Of a stretch of DNA of 64,000 bases, positions 2,801-64,000 are shown in pieces. The translations under genes were made by a program, and so were the position numbers. The stretch is from Zavarzinella sp. GTDB lineage: Bacteria > Planctomycetota > Planctomycetia > Gemmatales > Gemmataceae. How positions within the stretch are numbered: position 1 is the stretch's first letter; every line of letters begins with the position of its first letter. Below the pieces are notes generated by a model, which searched no databases, was not told the origin of the DNA, and saw nothing but the letters and a program-made list of their open reading frames with translations. The stretch lies in the NCBI GenBank assembly GCA_041399155.1, contig JAWKTI010000007.1:142287-206286 (forward strand), read 5' to 3'.

Positions 2801-3138
2801 TGAAGAGCTCCATCAAATGTTGTCGCACAGTAAGTGCCAGTTCTCTCAATTTAGGGGGACGTAAAGCGGAACCCCGGGCTAACGAATTCCAGGAAAATCC
2901 AACCCTGATGGGGTTTTGGTCCCATTGAGTAAATGTGCCCCCACAGGGCAAAAAAAATGAGCTGGAGTGTTTACCAAAGGTTCACTTCGTTCACCCTGGA
3001 CTGGTCGATTTGACACCCACAGTGTTGAAAACAATTCACTGCAAGTGCAAGAGTTGCACGATGAAAATATGAAAAATGCACCCGACAATGAAACTGTGAC
3101 AGGGAATTCCAAAATACTACGGCGTTTGCACGCACGTA

Positions 3139-3372
3139 TTATTTCGTGGTGCCGATCTGCTCTACCAGTTGTTCTTCGTTGGGGAACTTACCCGTGGCAA
3201 TTTTGGAATAGATTAAATTGCCATTGATCGTTAATTCAAAACAACCCCCGCTGGCGGGGATCAGTTTCAGCGATCGGATTCGTTGTTTGTACTTTGCAAG
3301 CACCTTTGCTGCCAAACTGACAGCTTGTGGCTCGTAGTTTCACATCGAACAGTATTTTAATTCCAGCTCCAT
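3139..3372 (-). CDS. SelW/SelT/SelH (Rdx) family selenoprotein candidate, with TGA at 3340-3342 read as selenocysteine
   Basis: ATG at 3370-3372 has GGAGG 8 nt upstream. Translation is MELELKYCSM-U-NYEPQAVSLAAKVLAKYKQRIRSLKLIPASGGCFELTINGNLIYSKIATGKFPNEEQLVEQIGTTK, with TAA at 3139-3141 (78 codons in frame). It carries a CxxU motif, the Rdx-type pattern L.P..GG.FE....G.LI.SK...G.FP, and a hairpin 15 nt after the UGA. Confidence 0.72.
3308..3324 (-). promoter_or_regulatory. Putative bacterial SECIS hairpin
   Basis: The minus-strand RNA GCUGUCA-GUU-UGGCAGC forms a 7-bp stem including one G-U pair, with a G/U apical loop. It starts 15 nt downstream of the in-frame UGA. Confidence 0.5.
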
Positions 3373-3493
3373 CTCTTCAACCTCCACTATATACGGAAGA
3401 CCACAGTTAATTAACTGTAGTACACCGTTTTGATAGTTGGAGTGAAAAAGAGATTCCAGCAAAATCTGGAGATTTTGGGCAAGCTGGGGGATT

Positions 3494-3751
3494 TTAGTGT
3501 CGCAACGTATCTGATGTGGGGTTCGGTTCGGTGCTTTCACCCAGCAGCACTTCTTCGTCTGCAGAAGCATGCACAGGAACAACGACATCAAACTGAACTC
3601 GGCGTTCGTGCACTTCTGCACGATCCACCGCTACATTCTTGGGTGCTGCCACCCCGATACGAACACGATCCCCTTTTACAGACACAATGGTGATGCGGAT
3701 GTTGTTGTCGATGACAATTTCTTCACCAACTCTGCGAGATAATACCAACAT
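3494..3751 (-). CDS. csrA: Carbon storage regulator CsrA
   Basis: MLVLSRRVGEEIVIDNNIRITIVSVKGDRVRIGVAAPKNVAVDRAEV is the canonical CsrA fold sequence. AAGGAGGG lies 6 nt upstream of the ATG at 3749-3751. The longer listed ORF start (3796) lacks an RBS. Confidence 0.92.
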   Translation of the reverse strand: MLVLSRRVGEEIVIDNNIRITIVSVKGDRVRIGVAAPKNVAVDRAEVHERRVQFDVVVPVHASADEEVLLGESTEPNPTSDTLRH

Positions 3752-3849
3752 GACCAACCCTCCTTGGAAGTAACACTCATGAAGTAAACGCACCAAACTA
3801 ATAGAACATAATTTTTAAGTAGCAAGCGCTGTGCCAAAAAATTATTTAT

Positions 3850-18800: not shown

Positions 18801-18851
18801 GCTTCCTTCAGGCACGAAGTGCCGTCTAGGCCAAGCCCAGTCCGTGAGGGC
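18801..18851. repeat. Left arm of a MITE-like palindromic element split by the IS4 copy
   Basis: GCTTCCTTCAGGCACGAAGTGCCGTCTAGGCCAAGCCCAGTCCGTGAGGGC is about 90 percent reverse-complementary to 20533-20583. It is built from short hairpin modules (GGCAC-GAA-GTGCC; GCCC...GGGC). Confidence 0.7.
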
Positions 18852-20362
18852 CATTGGTGTGAAGGTCTTGAACTGCTGGGAGGATTTGGCTAAGTTCTTT
18901 AAGAGTAAGGTTTTATGTTTTGTCAAGGATTGACAGATGACTTCAAATTCATTCGCTTCAGAGGCTTTATCACGCCTACCTTTAGCCGAAGCCGCTTTCC
19001 TCATGCTTGATGACATTTTCCAAAATAATACGCTTGAAGCGATCTATCAATCAAATCGTGGACGCACCTACACTCGTATTTTGACATTCTCTTCATTTTT
19101 CCAATTGTTGCGAGATTCACTGATTTCTCCCGATCACTCTGCCAGGGCTCGTCTGATCGATGCATCTGAAAACGGTGAATTGCCTACATCGCTCAAAGCG
19201 TTTTATGACAAATTAGCGCATATGCCGCCAGAGGTTGGGGCGGGGCTCCTTTCGCATTCCTATCGGGCTATTTCAAAGCTTTTGCCAAGAAAAATGACTT
19301 CTAAATTACCAAAATCTCTTTGCAAACTTACTGTTGTCGCCGTTGATGGCAAAGTAATTAAGCATACGATGCGGCGCCTTCTTCCTTTAAGAATAAGCAA
19401 GCAAAATGCATCAAAATTGCTTGGAGGAAAGCACTTGTTGCAGTGAATCTGAGTACTGGTCTGGTAATGGAAATGGCTTCGGAATTGGATGGAGAAGCAA
19501 GTGAAACACGCTTGTTAGCTCCACTTTTGCAACAGCTGAAAGACCATTGCGGCGAGAAATTAATTGTGGCGGATCGATGCTATGGTTTCTACAAGCATAT
19601 TGCAATGATCAAGGATGACGGGTGCCATTTTGTTTTACGAGTTGCAAGCATTACCCAATTTATTCAAGATCCGGAAAAACCAGCGAGAATTGGCAAAGAC
19701 CGATATGGCCGAAAACTTATCGAAGAACATGGCTGGATCACAAGTCAAAAGAATACGAAATTGATCGCAGTACGCCGACTGAGCATTATCCGCGATAAAG
19801 TGCAGATACAACTACTAACAGACCTGACCGATTCGAAACGATACCCTGCAGACGACATCGCAGAGATATATCGCTATCGTTGGGATATTGAGCGTGTATA
19901 CGCGACGATTACAAAAGTGTTTCAGTTGCGTCACTTGATAGGTACCAGTCCAGAGGCTGGTTTAATACAAGCATCGCTTTGCCTCATTTTATTTAACATT
20001 ACAGAAGCAATCAAATGGCATATTTCGGTCGGAAACGGAAAGAAAATAGATGAAGTATCTGGCGAAATGCTCTGGCGAGATATCCGAGATGAGGTGATGG
20101 CCGCAACGCGATTGCTTCGAACGCGCGATGTGCAGATGCTGCTTCAAGGGATCAAACAAGAAGTGGGGATATTAGAAAGACTAACTGAATTATTGGGCAA
20201 TCTGTGGAAAAAGAAGTGGGCAAAAAGCAAAGTAGGGCGTACAGATCCTACAAAAATTCCAAATCCAAAACCCCAAAAACTGAAACAGACAACTTGCCAC
20301 GATTCAGTCTTTAGGGTGATGAAGCGAGCAAAAAAATGATGTCCAAGACCTTCACATCAATG
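18852..20362 (+). mobile_element. IS4-family insertion sequence, copy 1 (1511 bp)
   Basis: Terminal inverted repeats CATTGGTGTGAAGGTCTTG (18852-18870) and CAAGACCTTCACATCAATG (20344-20362) match 18/19. It is flanked by the 12-bp direct repeat GTCCGTGAGGGC (18840-18851 and 20363-20374). Confidence 0.85.
18937..20339 (+). pseudogene. IS4-family DDE transposase split by a single frameshift (ORFs 18937-19446 and 19443-20339)
   Basis: DDE candidates VVAVDGKV, LIVADRCY and YRYRWDIERVY...K (YREK-like). Copy 1 has GG at 19426-19427 where copy 2 has GGG (63395-63397). Adding one G fuses the two ORFs (...LLGGKALVAVNLSTGLVMEM...). Confidence 0.78.
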
Positions 20363-62410: not shown

Positions 62411-62776
62411 GGCCGCAGACGCCGCCCCAGGAACTTCCCCAGCTGAAGACTAACGGTTTAATTCAACTCACTTAAATTATTTCATCTGTGAAAGCTAAAA
62501 GTGCTTATTCAACGCGCAAAGATAGCGTCTGACGTGGGTATCTTTTGCAAAAATTCCCCCAGACCTGTTCTTCATAAAATTGTCAAAAACCTGCTCTTTC
62601 CATTCACGCAACAGTGGGTTCCACCTTTTTCAACTCATACTCCAGCACTTTTACCAGACGGTGCAACTGTTTTTCGTGACGGGCATTTACTTCCGCAGCA
62701 AAAGATCATTCCTGCTAATTCGTGGAATCTCCCTCACATGCAAAAGAAAAGGAGGGGAATTCAATTTTCCCATGTT

Positions 62777-62823
62777 GCTTCAGGCACGAAGTGCCGTCTA
62801 GGAAAAGCCCGGTCCGTGAGGGC
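62777..62823. repeat. Second copy of the hairpin-rich repeat arm, again immediately upstream of an IS4 copy
   Basis: GCTTCAGGCACGAAGTGCCGTCTAGGAAAAGCCCGGTCCGTGAGGGC matches 18801-18851 and the reverse complement of 20533-20583. Confidence 0.7.
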
Positions 62824-64000
62824 CATTGGTGTGAAGGTCTTGAACTGCTGGGAGGATTTGGCTAAGTTCTTTAAGAGTAAGGTTTTATGTTTTGTCAAGG
62901 ATTGACAGATGACTTCAAATTCATTCGCTTCAGAGGCTTTATCACGCCTACCTTTAGCCGAAGCCGCTTTCCTCATGCTTGATGACATTTTCCAAAATAA
63001 TACGCTTGAAGCGATCTATCAATCAAATCGTGGACGCACCTACACTCGTATTTTGACATTCTCTTCATTTTTCCAATTGTTGCGAGATTCACTGATTTCT
63101 CCCGATCACTCTGCCAGGGCTCGTCTGATCGATGCATCTGAAAACGGTGAATTGCCTACATCGCTCAAAGCGTTTTATGACAAATTAGCGCATATGCCGC
63201 CAGAGGTTGGGGCGGGGCTCCTTTCGCATTCCTATCGGGCTATTTCAAAGCTTTTGCCAAGAAAAATGACTTCTAAATTACCAAAATCTCTTTGCAAACT
63301 TACTGTTGTCGCCGTTGATGGCAAAGTAATTAAGCATACGATGCGCGCCTTCTTCCTTTAAGAATAAGCAAGCAAAATGCATCAAAATTGCTTGGAGGGA
63401 AAGCACTTGTTGCAGTGAATCTGAGTACTGGTCTGGTAATGGAAATGGCTTCGGAATTGGATGGAGAAGCAAGTGAAACACGCTTGTTAGCTCCACTTTT
63501 GCAACAGCTGAAAGACCATTGCGGCGAGAAATTAATTGTGGCGGATCGATGCTATGGTTTCTACAAGCATATTGCAATGATCAAGGATGACGGGTGCCAT
63601 TTTGTTTTACGAGTTGCAAGCATTACCCAATTTATTCAAGATCCGAAAAACCAGCGAGAATTGGCAAAGACCGATATGGCCGAAAACTTATCGAAGAACA
63701 TGGCTGGATCACAAGTCAAAAGAATACGAAATTGATCGCAGTACGCCGACTGAGCATTATCCGCGATAAAGTGCAGATACAACTACTAACAGACCTGACC
63801 GATTCGAAACGATACCCTGCAGACGACATCGCAGAGATATATCGCTATCGTTGGGATATTGAGCGTGTATACGCGACGATTACAAAAGTGTTTCAGTTGC
63901 GTCACTTGATAGGTACCAGTCCAGAGGCTGGTTTAATACAAGCATCGCTTTGCCTCATTTTATTTAACATTACAGAAGCAATCAAATGGCATATTTCGGT
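62824..64000 (+). mobile_element. IS4-family insertion sequence, copy 2 (runs off the window)
   Basis: Starts with the same CATTGGTGTGAAGGTCTTG end. It is near-identical to 18852-20030 and preceded by the same GTCCGTGAGGGC (62812-62823). Confidence 0.85.
62909..64000 (+). pseudogene. IS4-family transposase, copy 2, with at least two 1-nt deletions relative to copy 1
   Basis: GATGCGCGCC here vs GATGCGGCGCC in copy 1 (near 63353) gives a premature TAA at 63359-63361. GATCCGAAAAA vs GATCCGGAAAAA (near 63645) shifts the frame again (…FIQDPKNQRELAKT… instead of …FIQDPEKPARIGKD…). Confidence 0.8.

Follow-up and report, generated by a model that had tools for sequence, protein, structure and literature searches.

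We identify, on the minus strand of a 64,000-nucleotide stretch of a Zavarzinella sp. genome (contig JAWKTI010000007.1, positions 142,287 to 206,286; hereafter the window), a small stand-alone gene that very probably encodes a selenoprotein W-like (SelW-like) thiol/selenol oxidoreductase of the thioredoxin-like Rdx family, built around a Cys8-x-x-Sec11 center in which an in-frame UGA is predicted to be decoded as selenocysteine (Sec). Judged from sequence, this UGA is almost certainly read as Sec, and we regard the comparative evidence for its decoding, drawn from related loci in other genomes, as decisive at the level of the family. A hairpin shortly downstream of the UGA has the features expected of a bacterial Sec insertion sequence (SECIS) element.

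The reading frame consists of 10 codons (MELELKYCSM), the TGA, 66 sense codons and a TAA, and contains or is preceded by the following elements:

3139..3372, minus strand: coding sequence of the Rdx-family SelW-like protein, read through the UGA, 77 residues (translation, profile match and orthologs)
3381..3385, minus strand: GGAGG, Shine-Dalgarno-like, with an 8-nt spacer to the ATG (direct sequence reading)
3370..3372, minus strand: ATG start codon (sequence; the Met is aligned in 54/59 orthologs, 92%)
3349..3351, minus strand: TGT, encoding Cys8, the opening residue of the CxxU redox motif (Cys in all 59 in-register orthologs)
3340..3342, minus strand: in-frame TGA, the inferred Sec codon, residue 11 (TGA in the same column in 64/67 loci)
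3308..3324, minus strand: SECIS-like hairpin, encoding A-V-S-L-A (minimum-free-energy fold, covariation and codon restriction)
3139..3141, minus strand: TAA stop codon (direct sequence reading and translation)

Translation from 3372 to 3139 through the TGA gives MELELKYCSM[U]NYEPQAVSLAAKVLAKYKQRIRSLKLIPASGGCFELTINGNLIYSKIATGKFPNEEQLVEQIGTTK, a product of 77 residues. The list of open reading frames (ORFs) cuts the gene in two: a 93-aa ORF (3340..3621), which starts in a different frame inside the 3' end of csrA, the gene upstream, and ends in MELELKYCSM, and a 58-aa ORF (3139..3315), which starts at a TTG at 3315. The 93-aa ORF had no family match in a Pfam scan. A preliminary description of this DNA had proposed that ORF calling breaks at the TGA (3340-3342) and leaves a meaningless 93-aa ORF, that MELELKYCSM is the true N-terminus of a 77-residue readthrough product with a CSMU (CxxU) motif, and that standard annotation misses or truncates the gene. 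On re-reading, its GGAGG ribosome-binding site, ATG, in-frame TGA, TAA and minus-strand coordinates all match; the translation agrees with the proposed product; and MELELKYCSM supplies the profile positions that the post-TGA ORF lacks. The point about annotation is borne out both by the window gene, split in the ORF list, and by its relatives, which public databases hold as fragments or with tryptophan (W) in place of Sec.

Scanned with U written as C, the readthrough product matches the Pfam family Rdx (PF10262) with an E-value of 1.7e-19 and 70.2 bits (cut-off 22.6) over profile positions 2-72 of 74, and NCBIfam TIGR02174 (CXXU_selWTH) with 71.7 bits (cut-off 34.2) over positions 1-73 of 74. 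On its own, the ORF after the TGA aligns to PF10262 only from position 19 to position 72. Since the first 18 positions are absent from it, the N-terminal strand and the redox motif are exactly what lies upstream of the TGA. The NCBIfam equivalog NF041051 (SelTWH_Campy) scored 78.8 bits, under its cut-off of 88, which places the window protein outside this narrower Campylobacter-type group. Seven solved Rdx proteins, bacterial and human, match by sequence (2fa8, 2obk, 2p0g, 2oka, 2ojl, 3dex and 2ljk; E-values 4e-11 to 5e-6), and mouse SelW gives a weak match (E 0.13). In these alignments C8-S-M-U11 falls on the CTQC of 2fa8 and 2obk and on the CEPC of MIEN1 (2ljk), so that Cys8 corresponds to the first Cys and the TGA column to the second Cys of the CxxC in the solved homologs. 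As a structural stand-in for the window protein we used the AlphaFold model of its Cys-containing ortholog P0001 (69% identity). This model (pLDDT 78.8) has strands at residues 2-8, 34-40, 46-49 and 52-56 and helices at 15-28 and 66-80, in the order beta-alpha-beta-beta-beta-alpha. Foldseek aligned it with TM-scores of 0.83-0.85 to 2obk, 2fa8, 3dex and 2p0g and 0.78 to mouse SelW, with thioredoxins next. By way of P0001, the window protein is predicted to adopt this thioredoxin-like beta-alpha-beta-beta-beta-alpha fold.

We compared the gene with 67 related loci, 63 from a GTDB scan that used one genome per species and 4 fetched earlier; protein-level and codon statistics use the 59 orthologs that are in register, and hairpin statistics use 58 distinct sequences. 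The 63 scanned loci come almost entirely from Planctomycetota metagenome-assembled genomes (Gemmataceae, Pirellulales, Isosphaeraceae and others), with a few labeled Poribacteria, Verrucomicrobiota or Anaerolineae, and the best identity to the window gene in this species-representative scan is 72%. TGA occupies the identical codon in 64 of the 67 loci, and the other three have Cys there (TGT in L001, TGC in L066 and L067). Conservation extends to both sides of the codon: the start Met, Y at -4 and C at -3 (YCxx) before it, and xYEPxAVSL...GGCFE...YSK...FP after it. At the level of the family, retention of the same TGA between conserved coding sequences rules out that it is a sequencing error, a genuine stop or the mark of a pseudogene.

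A protein search returned four full-length relatives, one with Cys and three with W at the Sec column, together with eight fragments (45-62 aa); JGI names four of these 'selenoprotein W-related protein'. Public collections thus hold the family in two faulty forms (P0002-P0012), with W at the Sec position or as C-terminal fragments. For the Cys form, the DNA of L001 confirms a TGT. The W of P0003, by contrast, corresponds to a TGA in its DNA (locus L002) that was translated under an alternative code, and the W of P0002 and P0004 presumably has the same origin. L001 (68-313), very closely related to Sec forms, is the sole close Cys form; it keeps the hairpin and has a Sec-type selD gene downstream. 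Its TGT suggests either a Sec codon that turned into Cys not long ago, with Sec decoding still active in that organism, or a base-call variant. In L003 (5450-5690), on a nanopore-derived contig, the conserved TGA is followed about 60 nt later by a 1-nt frameshift, probably an assembly error.

The hairpin, which begins 15 nt past the UGA, is present in the minimum-free-energy fold. Its 7 bp are formed by a 5' arm GCUGUCA (3324-3318) and a 3' arm UGGCAGC (3314-3308) around a GUU loop (3317-3315). Across the 58 orthologs each of the inner 5 bp is paired in 93-100% of sequences. Pair 21-33 links two synonymous sites, the third positions of an Ala codon and of a Thr or Ala codon, and occurs as CG in 43 sequences, UA in 12 and UG in 1. 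Since the window, L062 and a separate 'K' clade all show U-A, this state arose at least three times in separate lineages. Further compensated changes occur in L051 (GUU...UUA) and in L063, where the peptide A-S-S-L-E gives C-G and U-A pairs. None of 500 shuffles reached the observed pairing values, and sliding the partner by 1-3 nt reduced pairing to 23-46% of cells, compared with 87% unshifted. The G of the loop never varies, and at least 90% of orthologs have the U that follows it.

Codon choice within the hairpin is strongly restricted. The Ser at +8 is AGT in 56/58 orthologs (codon entropy 0.22 bits, as against 1.8-2.1 at other conserved Ser columns), the Val at +7 is GTC in 51/55 (0.45 bits), and the Leu at +9 is NTG in 58/59 (0.91 bits, as against about 1.6-2.4 at other conserved Leu columns). 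This restriction is confined to the hairpin codons, and the distant Cys homolog L067 has no hairpin. Our data suggest an RNA element embedded in the coding sequence, a pattern that fits a bacterial SECIS. Such elements have been described as having a core hairpin of 5/6 bp that lies a few nucleotides past the UGA and whose loop contains an invariant guanosine (PMC4607533; also PMC1088965).

These comparisons also bear on the remaining claims of the preliminary description. It had assigned the product to the Rdx/SelW type, and PF10262 and TIGR02174 both match above their curated thresholds over the whole domain; it had placed CxxU at the column where Rdx proteins carry CxxC or CxxU, and the motif aligns to the CxxC of solved homologs. 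The family-typical pattern it saw downstream of the UGA recurs in the orthologs as GGCFE...YSK...FP. It had named orthologs ending at the TGA, or lacking similarity beyond it, as grounds for rejection; instead, 64/67 loci share the codon and downstream similarity is conserved. Cys-aligned homologs, which it had asked for, exist in L001, L066 and L067 and in the CxxC of 2fa8, 2obk and 2ljk. The 7-bp hairpin with a GUU apical loop 15 nt past the UGA is present as described, and its placement as a bacterial SECIS gains support from covariation, the invariant loop G and synonymous-site constraint across orthologs.

We propose the following route from gene to enzyme. Translation would start at the ATG at 3372 and would not terminate at the UGA (3342-3340), since the hairpin 15 nt downstream would act as a bacterial SECIS composed of the 5 conserved bp, 2 more in the window sequence, and the G-U-Y apical loop. 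SelB-GTP carrying Sec-tRNA(Sec) would bind this hairpin and deliver selenocysteine, after which translation would run on to the TAA at 3139 and yield the 77-residue protein. We infer both the insertion of Sec at the UGA and the binding of SelB. The product would fold as a thioredoxin-like domain with C8-x-x-U11 at the start of helix 1, and the Cys-Sec pair would be expected to alternate between selenolate/thiol and selenenylsulfide forms.

A link between the SelW-like family and the Sec machinery is visible in the related genomes. In 27 of the 67 loci, selD lies directly downstream on the same strand, across a gap of 8-120 nt (357 nt in L061):

selD downstream: loci L001, L002, L004, L006, L009, L017-L019, L021, L024, L026, L027, L029-L033, L035, L036, L039, L042, L044, L046, L053, L055, L061 and L064

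All but two of these adjoining selD genes (25/27) have an in-frame TGA of their own at the classical site (CAG[U]AGK). The Sec-type selD genes contain a hairpin, GCGCAG-GUY-CUGCGC, about 27-45 nt after the TGA, with the same G-U-Y triloop as the SelW-like genes, and the two Cys-type selD genes (L055 and L027) are without it. In L061 the SelW-like gene (3001-3228) is separated from selD (from ~3589) by a tRNA-Sec gene (anticodon TCA, 3384-3480). The window locus is without an adjoining selD. We found no description of the SelW-like/selD pairing or of the common G-U-Y triloop in the open-access literature searched. Complete Sec machinery is known from several Planctomycetes (PMC4807772), and selABCD are presumably present in this genome as well.

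Several observations weigh against Sec decoding of the window gene through this hairpin. No selA, selB, selD or tRNA-Sec was found in the 64-kb window, where ARAGORN reported no tRNA, tblastn with planctomycete SelD returned nothing, and a Pfam scan of 20 ORFs, the largest ones included, gave no SelA, SelB or SelD. Taken alone, the window hairpin is unremarkable, with fold z-scores of -0.84 (66 nt) and -1.79 (31 nt), and 5.6% of the TGA triplets in the window precede a comparable hairpin (at least 7 bp, G in the loop). RNAalifold on a 58-sequence, 54-nt alignment gave no pairs at all, for which reason the named hairpin was tested explicitly across orthologs. An Rfam search of 2900-3700 with E-values up to 10 returned no SECIS family and only a spurious long noncoding RNA match. 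The two outer base pairs are paired in only ~60% of orthologs; the Cys form L001 retains the hairpin, so presence alone is no proof of current function; and the triloop lies 22 nt from the UGA in the SelW-like gene as against 33 nt in the neighboring selD. Because the single-sequence statistics are weak, the significance of the hairpin rests on the comparison of orthologs. It is also conceivable that the gene encodes a selenoprotein whose hairpin arises only from conservation of the peptide A-V-S-L-(T/A), with the true recoding signal lying elsewhere or being more extended. The hairpin does encode a conserved peptide, and the weak single-sequence statistics, the empty RNAalifold and Rfam results and the hairpin of the Cys form L001 are all compatible with this, yet we consider it quite unlikely. 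Peptide conservation cannot explain the synonymous choices, such as AGT for Ser in 56/58 cases out of six possible codons or GTC for Val in 51/55, nor the joint shift of Ala and Thr third positions, from C-G to U-A, that is seen in three or more separate lineages. Amino-acid changes are themselves compensated (A-S-S-L-E in L063, GTT...TTA in L051), the distant Cys homolog L067 is without the hairpin, and selD of the same genomes has a G-U-Y triloop hairpin only if the TGA is present.

If the TGA were instead a true stop, the locus would be a pseudogene or remnant, or would yield no more than a 58-aa C-terminal fragment initiated at TTG 3315, as would fit an organism that has lost the Sec trait. 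The lack of Sec machinery in the 64-kb window agrees with this, as do gene callers and databases, which routinely hold only 45-62-aa C-terminal fragments of the family. We nevertheless judge a true stop very unlikely, given that the identical TGA recurs in 64/67 loci across several Planctomycetota orders with the 10 upstream codons conserved as protein, and that the fragment from 3315 would lack both the redox motif and profile positions 1-18. The ORF is, moreover, intact on either side of the TGA, a good ribosome-binding site precedes the upstream ATG and none is needed internally, and the window hairpin retains a compensated U-A pair. Extremely unlikely, in our view, is the decoding of the UGA as a standard amino acid (Trp, Cys or Gly) through codon reassignment or SECIS-independent near-cognate readthrough. 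The W at the Sec position of three database proteins (P0002-P0004) would speak for it, but that of P0003 stems from an alternative-code gene call on the TGA of the L002 DNA. TGA is a normal stop in the window, where 18 of 52 long ORFs end in it, among them a thiolase and a sulfatase gene with complete Pfam domain matches, and reassignment was rejected on this stop-codon usage. The Sec column alternates with Cys only, never with TGG, and the same genomes hold selD with a classic Sec site, one of them also holding tRNA-Sec.

In four relatives both redox positions are encoded by TGA, in the arrangement TAC TGA xxx ATG TGA GGN, which would give Y-U-x-M-U-G(-Y-E-P):

L020, 3001-3222: UxxU variant
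L046, 3001-3219: UxxU variant
L068, 2700-2455, minus strand: UxxU variant on a metagenome contig
L069, 86-1, minus strand: UxxU variant on a metagenome contig, ORF cut by the contig end

The ORFs of L020, L046 and L068 are complete and otherwise intact, and the UxxU relatives have the same downstream hairpin. L011 differs little from L020 but carries TGC instead. In the UxxU forms the distance from the first UGA to the loop would be 31 nt, close to the 33 nt of selD. These sequences suggest a possible diselenide variant of the SelW-like protein. The 2022 and 2026 selenoprotein catalogs describe SelW-like proteins exclusively as single-Sec CxxU forms, and UxxU is unlisted for the family (PMC9312934, PMC13188914).

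The pairing with selD is the only functional hint for bacterial SelW-like proteins. It raises the tentative and, to us, doubtful idea that the Planctomycetota SelW-like protein is a partner of SelD, for example a selenium/selenide-handling or SelD-reducing carrier, and not a generic redox protein, that a subclade went on to evolve a UxxU center, and that the window gene is an unlinked member of this system. What suggests this is that the two genes are tightly paired and apparently co-transcribed in ~40% of species-level genomes, that both are Sec-encoded, and that they have a common triloop. As part of the same doubtful idea, a single SECIS hairpin in the UxxU subclade would serve two UGA codons 9 nt apart.

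Bacterial SelW-like selenoproteins (PF10262, formerly PF05169; TIGR02174) were first cataloged by Zhang, Fomenko and Gladyshev in 2005. The SelW-like CxxU family is the most abundant prokaryotic selenoprotein family, with 48 Sec and 7 Cys forms in the Sargasso Sea data and 427 Sec and 56 Cys forms in GOS (PMC1088965, PMC2398784). That annotation misses the family is documented already (PMC1088965, PMC2398784, PMC4607533), and the 2022 and 2026 catalogs grade it 'predicted with high confidence' (PMC9312934, PMC13188914). Like its known bacterial counterparts, the window gene encodes a single domain of ~75-80 aa with CxxU right after the first beta-strand, and has an in-frame UGA and a coding-region stem-loop with a G in the apical loop, in a family of mostly Sec and few Cys forms. 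It differs from other bacterial SelW-like genes in belonging to a Planctomycetota-specific subgroup with its own conserved hairpin sequence, GCYGUCAGUYUGRCRG, and with an operon-like selD pair in ~40% of relatives, though not in the window.

Outside the Sec-containing forms, the Cys-type bacterial Rdx proteins (Atu0228 2fa8, P. fluorescens 2obk, V. cholerae 2p0g, 2oka, 2ojl and 3dex) share the full-length domain and the same redox columns but have CxxC, ~100 aa and extra termini, and are without UGA or SECIS. Mammalian SELENOW (2npb) and MIEN1 (2ljk) likewise carry CxxU and CxxC, respectively, at the aligned position in a thioredoxin-like fold; eukaryotic SelW, however, uses a 3'-UTR SECIS with SBP2 and eEFSec, whereas a coding-region hairpin bound by SelB is expected here. 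As in the fdhF-type SECIS of E. coli, the hairpin lies in the ORF just 3' of the UGA and has a short conserved upper stem, a conserved G(U) and a small apical loop (PMC4607533). Its sequence is different, its G-U-Y loop is 3 nt long (or 5 nt, A-G-U-Y-U, if the closing A-U opens), and no bulged U is evident. The UGA-to-stem spacing of 15-17 nt is also longer than the 11 nt of the minimal E. coli element.

The surroundings of the window gene include the following features:

3494..3796, minus strand: csrA, the upstream neighbor on the same strand (Pfam CsrA, E 7.6e-21)
3470-3455, minus strand: terminator-like hairpin after csrA (terminator scan)
3111..3145, minus strand: weak candidate for an intrinsic terminator, a hairpin across the stop codon with a U-run at its end (fold -14 kcal/mol, z-score -1.87)

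Based on the hairpin at 3470-3455 and the weak one at 3145-3111, which the consensus terminator scan missed, the SelW-like gene is probably its own transcription unit. Another terminator-like hairpin (3263-3242, minus strand; 9 bp followed by UUUU), over the L-I-P-A-S-G-G-C-F codons, was rejected because the orthologs vary freely in these codons, and it is probably due to chance. The csrA neighborhood is not kept in relatives, and a comparison of flanks between the window and the related loci found no synteny except for one ORF in common with L040. A scan of the window for further selenoprotein genes, by in-frame TGA between two open stretches, singled out only the SelW-like gene. In many relatives a divergent gene of ~150-170 aa with sub-threshold DTW / Ribo_biogen_C similarity lies just upstream of the SelW-like gene, for example in L002 (918-1373), L003 (4905-5369) and L008 (2431-2946), all on the minus strand; it is absent from the window, and the cluster of 40 loci that represents it also holds antisense ORFs, so that the true count is lower. 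Elsewhere in the window, a 1.2-kb direct repeat with 99.4% identity (18803-20029 and 62775-64000, the second copy running past the window end) covers the ORFs 18937-19446 and 19443-20339 in one copy and 62909-63361 and 63594 onward in the other.

In every family test applied, the window gene behaved as a member, and it belongs to a long-known family, the commonest among bacterial selenoproteins, that will hold no surprise for the specialist. For the annotation of this genome, one 77-aa selenoprotein takes the place of two meaningless ORFs. The presence of the gene implies that UGA is decoded as Sec in this organism, and further split genes are therefore to be expected in its genome. To the family as a whole our analysis makes a modest addition: a covariation-supported Planctomycetota SECIS consensus, stem plus G-U-Y triloop, that is common to SelW-like and selD genes, and four UxxU variants in a family so far cataloged as CxxU only. 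The recurrent SelW-like/selD pair, finally, hints at a function for this bacterial family.

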